Shown: positions 26,513 through 34,536 of the stretch, piece by piece
Numbering within the stretch: the stretch's first letter is position 1
Layout: each line of letters starts with the position of its first letter
DNA from: Clostridiales bacterium
GTDB taxonomy: Bacteria; Bacillota; Clostridia; Saccharofermentanales; DTU023
DNA length: 64,000 nucleotides
NCBI GenBank assembly: GCA_028724525.1
Contig: JAQYCV010000036.1
Span: 6,269-70,268 of the forward strand
Direction of reading: 5' to 3'
Program-made: the position numbers and the translations under genes
Notes under the pieces: model-generated
Told to the model about the DNA's origin: nothing
The model's input: only the letters and a program-made list of their open reading frames with translations
Database searches by the model: none

Positions 26513-26539
26513 TTGAAGCTAGGAAAGTCATGCTATAAT
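26513..26539 (+). promoter_or_regulatory. candidate extended -10 promoter for the surface-protein gene
   Basis: TTGAAG (26513-26518), a 15-nt spacer, then TGcTATAAT (26531-26539). Confidence 0.45.
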
Positions 26540-26560
26540 TGCTCTCCGGACATTGTTGTA

Positions 26561-26577
26561 TTTTTTTTTTTTTTTTT
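26561..26577 (+). repeat. T17 homopolymer tract between the candidate promoter and the RBS of the surface-protein gene
   Basis: 17 consecutive T counted at 26561-26577. Confidence 0.95.
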
Positions 26578-26616
26578 GTACATTTAGATACTTATATAAA
26601 TAGGGAGAGGAACTTC

Positions 26617-29600
26617 ATGAGAAAGACAAGACACAGTAAAGGACATCTTAGAATCATTACAGCACTCTTGCTGGTGATCCTTATGGCTTTTTCCATCCTG
26701 CCATTGAGCGCTTTTGCTATGGATGCAGACCAGAAAAATACGGAAATCGCGCCTAATTCAGAAGAACTGGCCGGACTTGGAGACCAGGATGACGACACGA
26801 ACAAGAAGTCTGAGGACAAGTCTGGCGTTGATGCTGGCGACAGCAATGCGTCAACAGGCAAAGACGAAAACAAGCCTGAAACTCCAGCTGAAGAAGAGGG
26901 AGAGCAAAAGGAATCTTCCGATAAAAAGCCAGAAACCAATCTAGTCGAAAGCTCGGATGTTGATAAAAAAGACGGTGCTAGCAAGGATAGAGAAGCCTGG
27001 AAAAAGGCCTTGGAAGAAAAGCTGAAGAAAGGGTCCAAAGAGGATCCTGATATCCAACTCTTCAGTATTATCCAGCCCACGAAGCCCACCTACACCTACA
27101 TTTTCAAGGTAGACGATACTGAATACGACAAGCAGATTGTAAAGAATGGAGAAAAGCTCTTAGAGCCGGAGACCCCCGAGAAAGCTCATCATCGTTTTCT
27201 GGGCTGGCAACAAGAGAACCCTGAAGGCAGTGGTAACTATGTCGATTTCGATTTCAGCGAACCCATCTCAATAGCAGAAGATGCCACAAGTCAGGAAATC
27301 GAATTAGTGGCTAACTTTGAAGAGGTCTACTATGTCTACTTCATGTGGCCCCGGCAGGGTGAGGTTAAAGAGGAAGACAAAGATAAGTATGAAGTAATAG
27401 CCTCTCACGAAGGTAAGCCGGGTGAATCCATTAAAACAACAGATATTATTTCCCCCGATATGATGTTCCACGATATTATTTCTCCTGAACTGGAGGGACA
27501 GGAATTTGAGGGCTGGTACAAGGATAAAAAACTCACAGATGCGTGTGCTGATCCTTTAATTATAGGAAACGAAGACATCACCCTCTGGCCCAAGTTCCAG
27601 CCGACCGGCTATTGGCTGCACTTTTTCCCGGGTGAAGGTGCTTCTACTGTTATCTCACAATTTGTAAAGCGGAATAGCACACCTGCTATACCTGACCCTA
27701 CAAGGTTTGGCTATACTTTTAAACACTGGTCTTCCTCAAAAGATGGTCCTGAATTTGACTTTGCACAAGAATTAACTAAAGACACCGACCTCTATGCTGT
27801 TTGGGACCTCGCAAAAGCTAAATACACCGTCGTTTTTTGGAAGCAACGTGCAACTGACGACAAGAATGCACCCAATGATCAGAAAACCTACGATCTTGTA
27901 GAAGTGTATAAAGACGTTAGAGAAGGAACAACAGATGCCATAGTGCGCCCAACAAATGAGGACGAAAACTGGGCTAATACAAAAGACGAATTCCAGCACT
28001 TCCACTATAACTCTGAAAACTCTAAAGAAGTTATAGTCAAGCCGGATGGTTCGACAGTCCTCAATGTTTACTATGACCGTGATCTTTTTTATATCAAATT
28101 ACACTTTAGAGATGAGTCTGGACTATATCCCGATGATAAGGTTAAAACTATAACTGGACTCTACGGATCTGTTTTAATGGAAGGGACTCCTGACTATAAG
28201 ATTGCCTACGAAAGTGATGCCAGTGTTGGTAAAGATGACTGGCAGTATATGTGGTCGGGGAGTAAGGAAAAACCAAAACCCTCAATAAAACTAGATGAAC
28301 AAAATAAACCAGTTGAACCAAATAAACCAGATGTACGGGGCTTCCCCCTAACCTTTCGCTTTGAAGGCCCCAACTACGATTTTGGAAATGTGACGAAAAC
28401 AGACAAAGAGAACGATACAGCACACTTGTATCAAAGGCCTGATACCCCTGCCAACTTAGTTAATTGGATAGATTTTCAACGGCTAAATGGCAAGTACCCA
28501 GATGTAAATGACGGATTTGATGCGGATGAAACGTCGATAGGCGTTTATGGCACTTATTACCCGAACCTAGGTGTATACAAAGGCTTTACTCTGGCTTTTT
28601 TCAGTAAAAAAAATGAACCAACTGAGGATGAATGGGAGAGCTTTGCAGGAAAAACGGAGATAGATACGACGGGCTCAGAACAACATAGGTTTCGCATTAG
28701 AGCAAGTAGAAACGAATACAAGCTGACTTTCCGGAATTATAATGAAACCATAACCTCTAAAACTCTGCTCTATCAAGAACCTTTGAAGGGTTATTCTTTT
28801 ACCCCTAGCAGACCTGAGCACTTACCTGACTACTACGGGTTTAAGGGTTGGTACAAGAATTATAAAGATGGCGAATTCACAAACAAATGTGATTTTGACA
28901 AAGAAACCATGCCCTATAACGATATGGTCCTTTTTGCCAAATGGGGACCCAAGAGCGATGAAGATACGATGGCTATAGCCTATTGTAGTAAGCTGGGTGG
29001 GGACAAGAAAACATTAACTACGGAGTATGGGGACATAATTGAAAAAGAATCCCTGCCAAAAGTTGTCAGAGAGGATGGAACCCTAATCCAAGAAGGTGAT
29101 GCAGACTATCTCGTCAAAATCCCTAATAGTGCCCAATGGATAGGCTGGACAACAAAGGATGCCGAGGGAAAATACCAGCTTTATTCTTTTGGCCAAGCGG
29201 TTTACAAAAGGACTGAGCTTTATCCCTACTATATCGAGAAGGGCCTGTACACTGTTACTTATCATTACCCTGGGAACGATGGCAGTGAAAAGAACAAGAT
29301 AGATCCTAAGACCTACACAAAGCACTCCCAGGCTGATGTCCTCCCTTGGCCTCCTGACGGTAAAGTTCCAGAAGGCAAGATCTTCTTAGCCTGGACTACC
29401 AATAAGGAGGTGAGCGACAAATCGGCAGTCCCGGTAGCTTCGACTTCATCAGATTCTATGCAGGTTGGCCAAGCCTCTGAATTCAAGCTGTTTGCCACTT
29501 CTATGGCCGCTGTAGCTGCAAAAAGTGGCTATACGCCAAAAGATGCCATCGTCGTGGAAAATAATGTAGATTTCTACCCTGTGTTTGGACCTATCCCCGA

Positions 29601-30645
29601 GGAGGTTCAGATTACTTATGACGGCAACGGGGGAGAATTACCTGGTGGCGCTAATACCGTCAAATTTGATCCTGTCGCTAACAATAGCCTGCTCAAGATC
29701 TTAGATAATACGGAGGCTGACGGCCTCGGCTTTAAACGTACAGTTCAACTTAGCTCTGGTCCCCATGCTTGCGAATTCAGGCTCTGGGAGTATACACGCA
29801 AGGGTAAAACCTATAAGACTAAGCCCGGTGATGAATACACCTTGGACAGTGAGGATCCTAATAACAATGTCCTTAGAGCTGTATGGGCCAAACCTATAGA
29901 AATCAAGGTTACCACTGTTTGGGAAGACCAAGATAACAAGGCTAAGAAGCGGCCTGATCACCTAGATGTTCAGCTACGCAGAGATGGTACCGATCTTGGT
30001 GATCCTCTCAAGTTAAATCCGGATGTAAAATGGCAGGGCTGGTTTGGTCAGGATGGCGACCTCTTAGATATCGACGAAGCTTGCAATCCGTATACATACG
30101 ACATAGTAGCCCCCGATGTCACAGGCTATAAGAAAACTGTAAAGGGAGATGTGAAAAATGGCTTTACCATTAGCTACACCCTGCCAGTTGAGCCAAGTCC
30201 AGAGGGACGGAAGTACGTCGTCATAGTCGACCCCAATGGGGGTGTCTGGCCCGATGGGAGTTCAGAGAACTTACGCTACTTATTTGACGGAGGCGATATC
30301 TTTACGTTACCCGAACCCCCAAGCAAGGCAGGCCATGTCTTCGACTATTGGCAAGGGTCTCGCTACAACCCCGGTGACGAGTATGTCGTCACGGAAGACC
30401 ACTACTTCTTAGCCATTTGGAATCCGACAGAAGTACCTGAAATACGGGTGCCGATTCCAGTCGGTGGACAGACGAGCACCCCAAGCCCCTCCCGGCCTAC
30501 TCCGATGCAGGCCACACCGGTTCCTGCACAAGTCGTAGCCCTACCCCGGACCGGGGAATCCAGGCTGGAAAGCTACAGTTTATCTGCCAGCCTAGGCTTG
30601 CTGGCCGGTGTCCTAATCTTGTTGAGGAAAAAGTATAAAGCTTAG
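26617..30645 (+). CDS. LPXTG-anchored cell-wall surface protein with multiple Listeria-Bacteroides (Flg_new-type) repeats and a Cna-B-like domain
   Basis: Signal peptide MRKTRHSKGHLRIITALLLVILMAFSILPLSAFA (ATG 26617, RBS GGGAGAGG). Repeats recur with the pattern F.GW...F.F....DL.A.W, for example GYTFKHWSSSKDGPEFDFAQELTKDTDLYAVW. VTTVWEDQDNKAKKRPDHLDVQLRRDG is Cna-B-like. The C-terminus has LPRTGE, a hydrophobic helix, then RKKYKA. Confidence 0.85.
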   Translation: MRKTRHSKGHLRIITALLLVILMAFSILPLSAFAMDADQKNTEIAPNSEELAGLGDQDDDTNKKSEDKSGVDAGDSNASTGKDENKPETPAEEEGEQKESSDKKPETNLVESSDVDKKDGASKDREAWKKALEEKLKKGSKEDPDIQLFSIIQPTKPTYTYIFKVDDTEYDKQIVKNGEKLLEPETPEKAHHRFLGWQQENPEGSGNYVDFDFSEPISIAEDATSQEIELVANFEEVYYVYFMWPRQGEVKEEDKDKYEVIASHEGKPGESIKTTDIISPDMMFHDIISPELEGQEFEGWYKDKKLTDACADPLIIGNEDITLWPKFQPTGYWLHFFPGEGASTVISQFVKRNSTPAIPDPTRFGYTFKHWSSSKDGPEFDFAQELTKDTDLYAVWDLAKAKYTVVFWKQRATDDKNAPNDQKTYDLVEVYKDVREGTTDAIVRPTNEDENWANTKDEFQHFHYNSENSKEVIVKPDGSTVLNVYYDRDLFYIKLHFRDESGLYPDDKVKTITGLYGSVLMEGTPDYKIAYESDASVGKDDWQYMWSGSKEKPKPSIKLDEQNKPVEPNKPDVRGFPLTFRFEGPNYDFGNVTKTDKENDTAHLYQRPDTPANLVNWIDFQRLNGKYPDVNDGFDADETSIGVYGTYYPNLGVYKGFTLAFFSKKNEPTEDEWESFAGKTEIDTTGSEQHRFRIRASRNEYKLTFRNYNETITSKTLLYQEPLKGYSFTPSRPEHLPDYYGFKGWYKNYKDGEFTNKCDFDKETMPYNDMVLFAKWGPKSDEDTMAIAYCSKLGGDKKTLTTEYGDIIEKESLPKVVREDGTLIQEGDADYLVKIPNSAQWIGWTTKDAEGKYQLYSFGQAVYKRTELYPYYIEKGLYTVTYHYPGNDGSEKNKIDPKTYTKHSQADVLPWPPDGKVPEGKIFLAWTTNKEVSDKSAVPVASTSSDSMQVGQASEFKLFATSMAAVAAKSGYTPKDAIVVENNVDFYPVFGPIPEEVQITYDGNGGELPGGANTVKFDPVANNSLLKILDNTEADGLGFKRTVQLSSGPHACEFRLWEYTRKGKTYKTKPGDEYTLDSEDPNNNVLRAVWAKPIEIKVTTVWEDQDNKAKKRPDHLDVQLRRDGTDLGDPLKLNPDVKWQGWFGQDGDLLDIDEACNPYTYDIVAPDVTGYKKTVKGDVKNGFTISYTLPVEPSPEGRKYVVIVDPNGGVWPDGSSENLRYLFDGGDIFTLPEPPSKAGHVFDYWQGSRYNPGDEYVVTEDHYFLAIWNPTEVPEIRVPIPVGGQTSTPSPSRPTPMQATPVPAQVVALPRTGESRLESYSLSASLGLLAGVLILLRKKYKA

Positions 30646-30702: not shown

Positions 30703-30880
30703 CTTGCTACGTTAGATAAGGGCGAGGGCTACTGTAAATAACGACCTTTTAGGACTTCACTTTTACGTGATCTTTGAACAAAGCAAGTCTTAGAAATGCA
30801 AAAGGGCTCCAGTGTACACCAGAGCCCTCACCCGTAGAGGGTTTGTCTTTTAAAATGTCCGCATGGGACTTTGTAGTATC

Positions 30881-31836
30881 ATTCTAAGCCCTGGTTCAAT
30901 TAATTGTCAACTTAACTTTACATTTTTTCTTTCAATTTATTATGTGTCAAAAGATCTATGATTGCCTTATCTATTTTGTCTAATGATGTATCAGAAAGAG
31001 ATATTCCAGATAGGCTATCTTCCTTATAGAGTGGGTTATATATTCTTAGCTTCGATATTGTGACAATCTGATTGACAAGAGCAATGCTTCCATACTTCAT
31101 TCGTTTCAGCTCTGTATTATACTTGCTTGCTTCTTGTAATCTGCCTCTAGCTGTCTCAATTTGTTTCGATGCTTTTTGGAAGCATAGCAATACATCACTA
31201 TCCGTAGGGTCATTTTGGGTCATTTTTTTTATCTGCTTGTAATTGTTGAAGTTGTTCAGAGCAAATGTCGATAATGTGCTCGTTTTCATCTTGAATGTTT
31301 TTAGTCTTAAGATATAGCTTTTGTTGCAAATCATTCCCTATATAAATGCTTCCTTTAGGGAGGTTATTTAAGTCATGCTTCGGTTTTTGTGATGTAAGTG
31401 GGATAACTTGAACAACTCTCTGTCTTTTACCTGAATCACTTAAAACAACACAATAGTGCAAGCCACCTTGTTCGCTTCCAATGCGAAAGCCTAAATGTGC
31501 TTTTATCACTGCCCCACGTTTAAAAGTAGCGAATTGTTCAACCTCTCTTTCTTTGCGCATAAATTTTGTGTAATCTTCAATCCAATAGGCCAATTTATCA
31601 GCAAGCATGGGATCTTGAGTATCAATGGTCTCTTCAAGAAAAAGTCGAAGGGTCTCAATACTTTTATTGCAATGCTGTTTAATGTCTTCCTTTGATTTTC
31701 GGATGCTCATAATTTTAATACCTGGTCATAGTGGTCAGAGAGTGTTAATAATTGATTCTTCTTGTGAAAAAATAGTGTAGTACTCAAGGCTATCTCGTTT
31801 AGAGGGCTATTTTTGCCGCCAGATTCTAAGCCTGGT
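30881..31836. mobile_element. AT-rich islet of about 0.93 kb bounded by 15/14-nt direct repeats at the 3' end of ogt (candidate integrated cassette or remnant; no recombinase gene)
   Basis: DR1 is ATTCTAAGCCCTGGT (30881-30895) and DR2 is ATTCTAAGCCTGGT (31823-31836). DR2 includes the ogt stop codon (31826-31828). Hand counts of sampled 60-nt lines gave about 22% and 43% GC inside, against about 70% just outside. Confidence 0.55.
30918..31710 (-). pseudogene. extended MazF/PemK-fold toxin-like gene split by a frameshift in an A8 run (track ORFs 31210-31710 and 30918-31334)
   Basis: ORF1 carries the first half of the fold: FKRGAVIKAHLGFRIGSEQGGLHYCVVLS...VVQVIPLTSQ. ORF2 carries the second half: YGSIALVNQIVTISKLRI...GISLSDTSLDKIDKAIIDLL. 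For comparison, B. subtilis MazF reads VKRGDVY..GSEQGGVRPVLV..AAITAQ..DSVILLEQIRTIDKQRL..MMDKVDEAL. The frames meet at the coding-strand A8 run (31223-31230), and an A7 run would give one 263-codon ORF. Confidence 0.6.
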
Positions 31837-32938
31837 AGTTAAACATTTCCAAGTTGAGCAGGCGGTCTTTCATCTCCACGCTGCCTCCGAAACCAACGAG
31901 CTGGCCGTCTTGGCCAATAACGCGGTGGCAGGGGATGAGGAGGCCCAAGGGGTTGGCGGCGCAGGCGCGACCGACCGCCCGGGCATAGGCTGGAGCCTTT
32001 TCAGGGCCCACGATCTTAGCCGCCAAATCTCCATAGGACCAGGCGGTGCCGTAGGGGATCTCTTTCATGGTTTCCCAGACTTGGCGTTGGAAGGGAGTGC
32101 CCTTGATGATTTTATACGGCAGGTCGAAATTTCTAGTCTCCCCCGCCAAGTAAGCGGTTACTTGCTTTTCGGCCTCCCGGAGGAGGGGAGAATAGCTGAT
32201 CCTGCCCATTGGGGAGTCGGATGAGGGTTCTGCTTGGCCTTGGGGCAGGGTCCCTGGCTGATAGCGGCCGTCGGCATCCAGTAAGCCTAGGTCATTGAGG
32301 AGGAAGGCAGGAGGGCCTGGAGAAAAAACTTCTTGGGGCTGGATGAAATCCACACCGGTAAGATAGGCATGCTGCCTGTCTTCATGTAAAATGATGCCAA
32401 AGTTGTGGAAGGGCACATGGATGAAGGAAGAGGAGAGGGCCAGGCGGCGGAGATAAAAGCCCCACTTGGCTTGGGGCCAGGGACCTGGGCACCAGGCCTT
32501 GCACCAGCACTGGAGGCCTGCCTCTTCCAGCTCCTTTAACATTTCGGCCTCCGGCGGCTTGGAGCCTTGGAAGGTCACGGATAAGTCATACAGTTCCGGG
32601 AAGTAGTTAAAAAGATCTTGGCAGAGGACTAGGCAGTCTTCTGCACTTAAGTTCGCATCTTGTTTTGGATATACGAGGACGCGCGTACCGCTGGTCATAT
32701 GAGCTTCTGCCTGCAAAAGTAGTAAGTTTTCCTGGCCCTGGTCAGATTGCCAGATAAAAATACTATCGAGGGGACAAGACTCCTGCCACTGACGCATGAA
32801 AGCTTGGCGCTGGCGGTTAGTTTTCAGACAGGATACAGGCAAGGGATAGGGCTTCAGAGCCTTATTATCCTTGAGCAGTAGTTTGATCAGTTTATGGCCG
32901 GACCCAGGTTTCATAGCGGAATTGTATCTCTCCTTCAC
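31826..32938 (-). CDS. ogt: methylated-DNA--protein-cysteine methyltransferase with a ~200-aa extra N-terminal region
   Basis: The C-terminal TPFQRQVWETMKEIPYGTAWSYGDLA...ANPLGLLIPCHRVIGQDGQLVGFGG contains the PCHR active site. The N-terminal region has no motif I recognise. Either candidate start overlaps the folA 3' end. Confidence 0.8.
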   Translation of the reverse strand: MKERYNSAMKPGSGHKLIKLLLKDNKALKPYPLPVSCLKTNRQRQAFMRQWQESCPLDSIFIWQSDQGQENLLLLQAEAHMTSGTRVLVYPKQDANLSAEDCLVLCQDLFNYFPELYDLSVTFQGSKPPEAEMLKELEEAGLQCWCKAWCPGPWPQAKWGFYLRRLALSSSFIHVPFHNFGIILHEDRQHAYLTGVDFIQPQEVFSPGPPAFLLNDLGLLDADGRYQPGTLPQGQAEPSSDSPMGRISYSPLLREAEKQVTAYLAGETRNFDLPYKIIKGTPFQRQVWETMKEIPYGTAWSYGDLAAKIVGPEKAPAYARAVGRACAANPLGLLIPCHRVIGQDGQLVGFGGSVEMKDRLLNLEMFNYQA

Positions 32939-33395
32939 TTAAGTAAGGCCCCTGGTCTTTTAGGACGAAACCACTGGCCTCGAGGTCTGGGAAGTGGACA
33001 TCTGCTGGAAAGACCTGGTCTATCCGGGTCAGCTCCACACGGTGGGTATCAGCGAGCAGGGTTTCATAGACAGAAGCTCCCCCGATGATGCAAAAATCAT
33101 CTTCCGTACGGCCTTCCTTTTTGAGTTCTGTAACGCGTTTTTCAAGTTCTTCAATCGAACGGACAATTTCTGCGCCGGGGACATCCTCTGGTCTCAATTT
33201 GCGGCTAAGGATGATATTTAAGCGACCAGGTAGGACTTTTTGCCCTGGGAAGGTTGCCAGGGTCTTGGCCCCATAAATTAAGACCTTACCCATGGTCATT
33301 TGCTTGAAGCGTCTTAAATCTTGGCGGATGGGTTGGAGCAACTGTCCATCCCGGCCAATTCCGTTAGCTTGATCAATGGCGACAATAGCAATCAT
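32892..33395 (-). CDS. folA: dihydrofolate reductase
   Basis: MIAIVAIDQANGIGRDGQLLQPIRQDLRRFKQMTMGKVLIYGAKT...IIGGASVYE. Confidence 0.9.
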   Translation of the reverse strand: MIAIVAIDQANGIGRDGQLLQPIRQDLRRFKQMTMGKVLIYGAKTLATFPGQKVLPGRLNIILSRKLRPEDVPGAEIVRSIEELEKRVTELKKEGRTEDDFCIIGGASVYETLLADTHRVELTRIDQVFPADVHFPDLEASGFVLKDQGPYLSEGEIQFRYETWVRP

Positions 33396-34460: not shown

Positions 34461-34536
34461 CGGGGCGTAGCTCAGGTGGTAGAGCGCTTGGTTCGGGACC
34501 AAGAGGCCGCTGGTTCGAGTCCAGTCGCTCCGACCA
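34461..34536 (+). tRNA. tRNA-Pro (CGG)
   Basis: Acceptor CGGGGCG/CGCTCCG, anticodon loop TTCGGGA, 76 nt, CCA encoded. Track ORF 34449-34706(-) is a shadow over it. Confidence 0.9.

Follow-up and report, generated by a model that had tools for sequence, protein, structure and literature searches.

A split PemK/MazF-fold gene and a conserved small RNA behind it in a Clostridiales genome: a possible stranded type III-like module of phage origin

MazF and PemK are textbook type II toxins that are neutralised by a protein. The locus described here encodes this fold with no protein antitoxin gene beside it, and the question it raises is what would keep its product silent. It lies in a stretch of 64,000 nucleotides (nt) of a Clostridiales bacterium (assembly GCA_028724525.1, contig JAQYCV010000036.1, positions 6,269 to 70,268), here called the window. 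As originally predicted, the toxin gene consists of two overlapping open reading frames (ORFs) on the minus strand, ORF1 and ORF2 (Table 1). The original prediction, which had looked for an RNA partner only upstream of the gene, reported none and proposed a fused single-gene module in which extra helices of the protein serve as a built-in antitoxin. Directly downstream of the toxin gene we found a conserved gene for a small RNA, built of two to three imperfect repeat units. It is somewhat more probable than improbable, in our judgement, that the locus is a stranded, disrupted copy of a type III-like toxin/RNA-antitoxin module, acting in abortive infection or addiction, from the lysogeny modules of temperate phages of Bacillota. 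The small RNA is probably the antidote of the toxin.

The joined protein matched the Pfam family PF02452 (PemK_toxin) with 41 bits (cut-off 23.1) in two stretches about 85 residues apart. Residues 64-112 aligned with positions 1-50 of the profile and the C-terminal part with positions 54-108, and ORF1 and ORF2 alone scored 30.2 and 14 bits, respectively. PF02452 was also assigned, in precomputed annotation, to 34 of 34 homologues. A profile of the family matched MazF, EndoA and MoxT chains among the PDB sequences with E values of 2e-7 to 1e-3, and these alignments too were split into two stretches. The AlphaFold model, for which 33 family sequences were used, reached a predicted local distance difference test (pLDDT) score of 89 and a predicted template modelling (TM) score of 0.78. 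It contained helices 7-29 and 34-54 forming an N-terminal hairpin, barrel strands 67-125, inserted helices 127-163 and 168-200, and a C-terminal part with strands 205-216 followed by a C-terminal helix. The best Foldseek matches in the PDB were MazF of S. aureus and of B. subtilis, with target-normalised TM scores of 0.73-0.77 and a probability of 1.00. The toxin product is thus an extended PemK/MazF-fold protein, and both the N-terminal helical extension and the internal helical insertion that had been predicted from the letters were recovered in the model as hairpins 7-54 and 127-200. No ToxN, CptN or TenpN chain was among the PDB sequence matches at E<=1, which were otherwise MazF-type chains and noise; neither ToxN nor CptN was among the 50 Foldseek matches listed, and Pfam gave PemK only.

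The family protein is presumed to be a sequence-specific endoribonuclease. Its invariant residues include GGLH, PLTS and QIxTISKxRI. The catalytic residues of MazF, which we take to be an arginine (R25 in B. subtilis, R29 in E. coli) and a threonine (T48 and T52, respectively), were located by HMMER alignment to 7bxy and 4hke. The arginine position is occupied in the family by an invariant histidine (H85, in GGLHY), and the threonine position corresponds to T106 (in PLTS), which is Ser or Gly in some members and is followed by the invariant S107. The N-terminal hairpin was conserved, with W43 and E54 invariant and Y42 and Y47 nearly so. The inserted helices were poorly conserved and highly variable, being almost absent from members of 201-212 amino acids (aa) and exceeding 170 residues in a member of 353 aa.

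The absence of a protein antitoxin gene, as noted originally, was upheld in the window and beside the homologues. No ORF fits the flanks of the gene in the window. In 101 dereplicated loci, the first upstream ORF with 90 aa or more was compared with Pfam, and none was of the MazE, PemI or AbrB type; in 110 dereplicated loci, clustering of the small ORFs (25-130 aa) lying up to 700 nt away on each side brought out no conserved small protein antitoxin. The downstream clusters obtained in this way were the RNA gene translated in several frames on both strands, and a conserved small protein antitoxin was dropped as a candidate. Homologues with an adjacent conventional antitoxin, which would have pointed to a simple loss in the window, were not seen in either neighbour check. 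The part of the claim that did not hold is that the gene stands without a partner, as the conserved small RNA gene follows it.

All-against-all BLAST of the 450 nt after the stop codon placed 104 of 111 dereplicated loci, the window included, in one similarity cluster. This conservation was limited to the first ~150 nt and held although the proteins were only 35-45% identical, while the 350 nt upstream of the gene gave small clusters only, the largest with 11 members. The order within the conserved block was a promoter, a single-stranded ACA(A/N)(A/N)G, a GC hairpin of 4 bp, an A-rich linker with AAGAC, a second hairpin and a Rho-independent terminator that often starts with a third AAGAC. A promoter of the TTGACA-17/18-TATAAT type was found with a loose pattern in 89 of 109 homologous loci, and both ACA and AAGAC were invariant in the alignment. 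Covariation was computed on a MAFFT alignment of 48 sequences that was not fitted to any structure. The three helices were 95% paired versus 26-51% with slid partners, the covariation score was 0.53 versus at most 0.16 and was reached by none of 500 shuffles, and double changes were present in 15 of 17 pairs. A covariance model derived from this alignment placed the element right behind the gene in 80 of 99 dereplicated loci that were scanned, with one weak match elsewhere in ~1 Mb. The small RNA of Streptococcus phage Javan166 scored 70 bits with this model. The corresponding gaps in S. aureus phage SA13 and S. pyogenes prophage 315.1 gave no significant score and displayed by eye the same layout of promoter, two hairpins and terminator, with ACAAG before each of the two hairpins in SA13. 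Tandem Repeats Finder (TRF) detected no tandem array in the RNA.

In the window, the promoter of the small RNA begins 8 nt past the toxin stop codon and was the best site in the region in a generic promoter/terminator scan. The 79-nt RNA alone folds into three hairpins with a minimum free energy of -28.6 kcal/mol (z=-3.7). The covariance model matched the window at 30801-30884 with 56.6 bits (E=4e-9); the window belongs to the seed of this model, and the independent support is its BLAST similarity to three other loci (L010, L058 and L060). The RNA is absent from Rfam: Infernal gave no match to it, RF02913 pemK included, whether the search covered the window, 27 homologous loci or, at E<=10, a slice of 200 nt, and a known RNA family was dropped as an explanation after these searches, permissive ones included, came back blank.

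Some further RNA features were observed at individual loci. Three of the 80 loci matched by the covariance model, L043 (5875-5966), L059 (5830-5918) and L150 (5881-5970), had a second copy of the RNA immediately upstream of the long PemK gene, the position known from classical type III systems. RF02589 (S. pyogenes small RNA Spy779816) matched the Javan166 locus (L268, 3747-3833, minus strand) with 76 bits against a threshold of 67, and more weakly L269 (3811-3900). On the opposite strand, these matches occupy the interval from the new small RNA to the integrase gene; in that position ahead of the integrase, many other loci have a GC-rich hairpin whose loop reads ...GCCAACA.... FuFi-1 RNA (RF02986) was found with 122-133 bits in L074 (2716-2874), L106 (2641-2862) and L113 (970-1188), in early prophage regions ~3-4 kb upstream of the long PemK gene.

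Several observations link the RNA to the protein. RNA sequence classes track protein clades, the nearest protein neighbour carrying the same RNA class in 90 of 93 cases. The orphan islet in the window retains exactly the toxin and the RNA. The gene that follows varied: of the class A RNAs, 36 were followed by a tyrosine integrase, 12 by a serine integrase, 9 by another co-oriented gene and 8 by a convergent gene, and the next gene was convergent in 18 loci overall. Since tyrosine integrases, serine integrases, other genes and convergent genes all follow it, the RNA is not a leader of the next gene, and an integrase leader or attenuator was dropped because one and the same RNA class precedes both integrase types as well as unrelated and convergent genes. 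Complementarity of the RNA to the start region of its own toxin was 7.51 nt versus 7.49 nt across loci; an antisense mechanism is unlikely because there is no excess, and type I-like action on the toxin start was dropped. For a direct RNA-protein complex that would inhibit the toxin, this lack of complementarity is the one indirect pointer. The link between RNA and protein is therefore supported by near-universal adjacency, by retention in the islet, by the matching of classes and clades, and by independence from the next gene.

Most class A loci also contained an inverted repeat: the 3' end of the -10 box (3-4 nt), together with the 6-7 nt that follow, can pair with the segment just past hairpin 2. 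Covariation extends even to the fourth, variable base of this box (CAAT/ATTG, GAAT/ATTC, TAAT/ATTA), and the median helix was 9 nt within the own locus versus 6 nt across loci (for example L100, 6790-6870). Bases of the -10 box lie outside a transcript started there, so a read-through transcript from the protein gene must also fold around both hairpins. The copy in the window is without this pairing.

A scan of IMG/VR that was independent of the protein, using a pattern of the RNA only, gave 88 hits. In 40 of them a long PemK gene ends 5-105 nt upstream (one at 374 nt), and ~24 were chance matches in GC-rich coding DNA. Another ~24 hits, of 5-6 sequence types, were true RNA homologues (39-61 bits) without a long PemK gene, and the RNA is accordingly not exclusive to this toxin. 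The neighbours of these toxin-less RNAs were a PBECR3 barnase/RelE-like nuclease in L187, an HSDR_N nuclease and an NYN RNase in the L221 group (L190, L198, L221, L252), and a 276-aa membrane protein in the L205 group (L185, L194, L205, L206, L225, L227, L256). In the L218/L214 group (L184, L212, L214, L218, L222, L224, L242, L245) the RNA lies between a DUF1492/sigma70_r4 late regulator and the terminase region, and one more toxin-less homologue was found in L263. Such copies could be decoy antidotes, or antidotes of other nucleases.

The protein family is large and belongs to temperate phages. A word-indexed search returned 34 relatives, mostly of 230-270 aa with a query coverage of 92-98%, and an exhaustive profile search returned 394 clusters at 50% identity with E<=1e-30 and 1029 with E<=1e-10. 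Relatives were confirmed in 327 stretches of a species-representative genome collection and in 159 stretches of IMG/VR viral contigs; the 80 loci kept from the former were mostly from Lachnospiraceae, Oscillospiraceae and other Clostridia, plus Streptococcus. In all 7 distinct contigs inspected, a CI-like or ImmR-like helix-turn-helix (HTH) repressor was followed by the long PemK gene and a tyrosine or large serine integrase, with Ltp, NYN, HSDR_N or ImmA sometimes intervening as cargo of the lysogeny module. Of the 101 dereplicated loci, 64 had a phage integrase as the first large downstream ORF, either a tyrosine integrase (46 loci) or a serine recombinase (18 loci). The upstream neighbours were HTH_3 (21), Peptidase_M78 (ImmA, 12) and S24 (8), the rest being spread across 95 families. 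The same gene order was present in Streptococcus phage Javan166, in S. pyogenes prophage 315.1 (SpyM3_0682) and in S. aureus phage SA13 (gp02) together with its relatives, phages 92 and SA12; the S. aureus carriers are phietaviruses. A flavour of defence or mobile elements, suspected from the start, fits these neighbourhoods.

The architecture had been taken for an undescribed one, and this was half right. The protein is catalogued as phrog_1412, which it matched over the full length (E=7e-45, residues 10-252 aligning with positions 8-235 of 237), and is labelled PemK/MazF toxin in some RefSeq phage records; in the literature searched, no functional study of the phrog_1412 protein was found. 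PHROGs files it in the category 'moron' as 'antitoxin mazE-like', a label that other RefSeq records repeat and that, on a toxin-fold protein, is probably a mis-annotation; further RefSeq names are 'repressor protein' and 'pathogenicity island protein' (records such as NC_021863.1 gp02, NC_007064.1 and NC_009018.1). The family is in this sense catalogued but mislabelled. No family of PADLOC-DB 2.0 matched the protein at E<=1 and NCBIfam gave nothing significant, and a known defence system was dropped from consideration.

The copy in the window has been disrupted. ORF1 contains the N-terminal helical hairpin, the N-terminal half-barrel (GSEQGGLHY, VIPLTSQ) and one helix, the first, of the inserted hairpin; it stops 4 codons inside an out-of-frame duplicated segment. 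ORF2, whose mechanical reading frame reaches 31334, contains the second helix of the inserted hairpin, the C-terminal half-barrel (GSIALVNQIVTISKLRI) and then the C-terminal helix; its ATG sits within the first copy of the duplication, 11 nt ahead of the ORF1 stop, and the two ORFs overlap by 14 nt. A frameshift in a run of A and a 263-aa joined product had been proposed. The lesion proved to be a 10-bp tandem duplication, which in the AlphaFold model falls in the loop between the two inserted helices (residues 162-167). It was absent from L007, a syntenic contig that is 91% identical, whose product is continuous through ...EDKKNDPTDSDVL... at this point. Removal of one copy gives a 260-aa protein reading ...QADKKNDPTDSD..., and because the lesion is a 10-bp tandem duplication, this is the correct repair and the 263 aa with 'MTQ' are spurious. 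The split allele was also present in GCA_034177165.1, an NCBI assembly, and in two assemblies made independently from read sets. Since these three share it and are 100% identical to the window, the lesion is real but represents one lineage. A homopolymer slip or a sequencing error was ruled out, given a 10-bp duplication that is missing in the 91% relative and present in three assemblies. The lesion of L007 is a different one, homology stopping at about codon 185 and the product terminating at 187 aa. At positions 1715-1768 of L007, unrelated sequence takes the place of the last third of the toxin gene; barring an assembly junction where the contig ends, this is an independent second lesion. 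The toxin gene in the window is a split copy that is most likely inactive, as the original prediction had allowed with its alternative of an inactive relic, and a recent pseudogene is the simplest reading of it, since ORF2 is without a ribosome-binding site and the close relative is damaged differently. A split toxin gene next to an apparently intact RNA gene fits a recent inactivation.

Table 1. Positions of the toxin gene, its lesion, the small RNA gene and the upstream spacer in the window
Feature	Position	Strand	Basis or remark
ORF1, 166 aa	31210..31710	-	PF02452, 30.2 bits alone; AlphaFold
ORF2, 101 aa from ATG	30918..31223	-	called as a 101-aa gene in three assemblies
10-bp perfect tandem duplication, GGGTCATTTT x2 (coding strand AAAATGACCC x2)	31207..31226	.	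Tandem Repeats Finder and repeat finder
Small RNA promoter: -35 TTGACA 30910-30905, 18-nt spacer, -10 TAGAAT 30886-30881	30881..30910	-	11/12 matches
Small RNA, ~75 nt, predicted start near 30874	~30800..30876	-	covariance model, covariation, fold
ACAAAG	30874-30869	-	single-stranded motif before hairpin 1
Hairpin 1	30869-30857	-	covariation-supported
AAGAC motif, in single-stranded A-rich stretch	30849-30845	-	invariant
Hairpin 2	30842-30830	-	covariation-supported
Terminator hairpin with U-run	about 30829-30802	-	same terminator picked by the generic scan
Spacer, ogt-fusion gene to toxin start, 115 nt	31711..31825	-	TGACCA-N3-TGACCA at 31723-31737

From these observations, a working model of the intact module can be put forward. 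It would consist of a protein of ~250 aa, a MazF barrel with a conserved N-terminal hairpin and a variable hairpin between the halves of the fold, and of an RNA of ~75-100 nt made from its own strong promoter, with two hairpins, each behind an ACA/AAGAC motif, and then a terminator. The RNA, presumably abundant and short-lived, would bind the nuclease, probably with one RNA for each dimer. MazF is active as a dimer, and two RNA units would fit a dimer of the MazF type. The AAGAC and ACA motifs may be offered as pseudo-substrates and the helical additions may form the RNA-binding platform, keeping the nuclease silent as in type III systems; these additions are better candidates for such a platform than for a built-in antitoxin. 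Once transcription of the module stops, upon takeover of the host by a phage or loss of the prophage, the RNA would decay and the freed nuclease would arrest the cell, leading to abortive infection, superinfection exclusion or prophage addiction.

The module was compared with described systems. With the type II toxins MazF and PemK (B. subtilis EndoA/YdcE, S. aureus MazF, B. anthracis MoxT), it shares PF02452, the barrel fold, the GSEQGG loop, T/S at the second catalytic position and a QIRTIDK-like strand. These proteins have ~115 aa, whereas the proteins described here have ~250 aa with two helical hairpins added, an invariant His for the catalytic Arg, no MazE or PemI gene, a place between the repressor and the integrase of temperate phages, and a small RNA gene downstream. 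The type III systems (ToxIN, CptIN, TenpIN; AbiQ) share with it a Kid/MazF-like fold with extra elements, here by model, an adjacent short, repetitive and structured RNA closing with a terminator, and the association with phages or abortive infection. ToxN is Kid/MazF-like with additional folds that grip its RNA, and CptIN occurs in the same gut Clostridia (PMC3401426). The toxin described here differs in being a PemK member at the sequence level and not a ToxN, CptN or TenpN protein, and its RNA has two to three imperfect hairpin units in contrast to the 1.9-5.6 exact tandem repeats of 31-62 nt of the classical families.

A further close precedent is the prophage-encoded AbiF of Clostridioides difficile. 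The RNA that neutralises it, RCd22, has two hairpin motifs; comparative genomics had catalogued it as a motif before it was shown to be a type III-like antitoxin (PMC12373285). Both are prophage-encoded and place a non-coding RNA with two hairpin motifs and a terminator beside a toxic RNA-targeting protein, in our case a presumed one. However, the AbiF toxin is Abi_2/HEPN-like and not a MazF, RCd22 lies upstream and also attenuates transcription, and the two RNAs have no sequence relation. GajC of type II Gabija has a split MazF-like domain and is, compared by description only, the closest described architecture, but it belongs to a two-gene operon with the GajB helicase in E. coli, with no N-terminal hairpin and no RNA partner reported (PMC13069673). 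RF02913 'pemK' belongs to the set of Weinberg et al. 2017 and is, as far as the account citing it goes, a candidate structured RNA named for its association with pemK (cited in PMC7657543). What it has in common with the new RNA is this association, and Infernal gave no match between the two.

Several observations weigh against the type III-like reading. In nearly all loci the RNA gene follows the toxin gene and has a promoter of its own, whereas the RNAs of the classical families are all upstream and separated from the toxin by a terminator, which sets the RNA:toxin ratio. Its repeats are imperfect hairpin units and not pseudoknot-forming tandem repeats. Nuclease activity is assumed, because an invariant His replaces the catalytic Arg of MazF. 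The covarying inverted repeat at the -10 box is left unexplained by the simple model, genuine RNA homologues occur without a long PemK gene, and there is no independent defence annotation, because PADLOC is without a model for the protein.

The most probable of the alternatives, which we still regard as unlikely, is a non-toxic RNA-processing or regulatory pair of the lysogeny module, in which the PemK-like protein matures or controls the RNA, or in which the RNA is a regulator derived from the 3' untranslated region and acting on lysogeny, integration or other RNase cargo. It would account for the constant place between repressor and integrase, for the inverted repeat overlapping the -10 box, with which a read-through transcript folds around the hairpins, and for RNA homologues beside PBECR3, NYN and HSDR_N nuclease genes and near the late regulator; the change of the catalytic Arg to His also leaves room for a different activity. 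However, the pair persists in the window without any phage gene, it is combined elsewhere with unrelated repressors and both integrase types, and convergent genes follow it in 18 loci. Both close chromosomal copies are moreover damaged, and differently so, by the duplication in the window and by replacement of the C-terminal third in L007, which fits selection against, or dispensability of, a toxic gene, and PHROGs files the family among the morons.

Less probable still is the single-gene toxin of the original prediction, in which the N-terminal extension, the inserted helices or both block the active site or dimerisation in cis until a phage cue releases them, and the RNA is incidental. Fused toxin-antitoxin defence proteins such as CapRel are known, no protein antitoxin is conserved beside the gene, and the N-terminal hairpin is well conserved, as its invariant or nearly invariant residues W43, Y42, Y47 and E54 indicate. 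The poorly conserved insertion, ranging from almost nothing to more than 170 residues, argues against a conserved built-in antitoxin. The idea is further undercut by the downstream RNA, which was kept in 104 of 111 loci and in the orphan islet, and whose classes co-vary with the protein clades.

It is very improbable that the split gene in the window still functions as two chains whose halves reassemble via the antiparallel helices. The duplication falls between helices 127-163 and 168-200 with every residue kept, ORF2 has an in-frame ATG inside the duplicated unit that overlaps the ORF1 stop, neither half has a further lesion, the RNA gene is intact, and the allele is stable across three assemblies. 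The new ATG is, however, without a Shine-Dalgarno sequence (the upstream sequence is CAGATAAAAAAA), the three identical assemblies amount to one lineage, and the second, different lesion in the 91% relative suggests decay. Least probable, by a small margin, is a conventional type II system whose antitoxin lies elsewhere or is the phage repressor (HTH or ImmR/ImmA) and was lost here: HTH-XRE domains are common among type II antitoxins, only 3-38 nt separate the toxin from a preceding HTH_3 gene in 5 of the 7 inspected contigs, and RefSeq and PHROGs labels mention mazE, but only ~40 of 101 upstream neighbours are HTH, S24 or M78 and these differ in architecture (113-aa HTH; 189-aa HTH; 214-226-aa HTH+S24), other cargo (Ltp and NYN, HSDR_N, a PH-domain protein) intervenes in some loci, no MazE, AbrB or PemI family is among the neighbours, and the 'mazE-like' label sits on the toxin-fold protein itself.

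The surroundings of the pair in the window are chromosomal. The toxin-RNA pair forms a 1.2-kb stretch of 35-37% G+C, the toxin gene having 35% versus 50.5% for the window. No phage genes were found around the islet in the window, and the pair alone remains of the phage. One flank is a convergent gene for a 1368-aa LPXTG-type surface protein (26539-30645, plus strand), and the other is an ogt-fusion/folA/thyA cluster, upstream and on the same strand as the toxin. The 115-nt spacer between the ogt-fusion gene and the toxin contains no ORF, in agreement with the original prediction, no tandem repeat by TRF and no conserved element, upstream regions being unconserved across loci. The TGACCA-N3-TGACCA motif that had been pointed out there is present but altered even in the 91% relative L007. 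Upstream toxI-like repeats and a regulatory TGACCA repeat were both dropped as candidates on these grounds.

Other features of this neighbourhood concern the flanking genes. The 'ogt' gene (31826-32938, minus strand) encodes 370 aa, of which only residues 282-364 match the DNA-binding domain of methylguanine methyltransferase; the N-terminal ~280 residues gave no Pfam match. Its mechanical ORF overlaps the end of folA (32892-33395) by 47 nt, and the deposited 362-aa call overlaps it by 23 nt. A 10-nt direct repeat, ATTCTAAGCC, brackets the toxin gene, falling on the -10 box of the small RNA (30881-30890) and on the stop codon of ogt (31823-31832), and can be extended to 13/14 matches with one indel (CCAGG(G)CTTAGAAT). 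These repeats were dropped as insertion scars, as they are at about chance level in 1.5 kb and not conserved in L007. A tRNA-Pro gene (CGG anticodon, 34461-34536, plus strand) lies 2.7 kb from the islet beyond thyA, and no integrase or repeat resembling an attachment (att) site was seen between them.

Beyond this locus, we propose, as a tentative generalisation that is a little less likely than not to hold in full, that phrog_1412 and the downstream two-hairpin RNA make up a fourth family of type III-like toxin-antitoxin or abortive-infection systems, widespread but so far unrecognised, in the lysogeny modules of temperate phages of Clostridia, streptococci and staphylococci. No earlier family would combine a bona fide PemK/MazF toxin with an inverted gene order, in which the toxin comes first and the RNA follows from its own promoter. 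Toxin-less RNAs would in that case be escape decoys or antidotes shared with PBECR3 and NYN nucleases; phage PhiTE reportedly uses a pseudo-ToxI as a decoy antidote for escape.

For this genome alone the consequence is modest, the locus being an orphaned split copy. If the RNA is the antidote, a new family of type III-like systems would be built on a true PemK toxin with reversed gene order. Culturable and genetically tractable carriers exist, such as the S. aureus phietaviruses and S. pyogenes prophage 315.1, and the hypothesis is directly testable in them. If it is true, MazF/PemK would have a large phage-borne branch with a small RNA as its antidote. The boundary between type II and type III systems would then be less sharp, and the branch would show how one nuclease fold switched the chemistry of its antidote. 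It would also add a common, unannotated immunity or addiction pair to the prophages of gut Clostridia, S. pyogenes and S. aureus, in which the protein is at present mislabelled 'antitoxin mazE-like' or 'hypothetical' and the RNA is unannotated.

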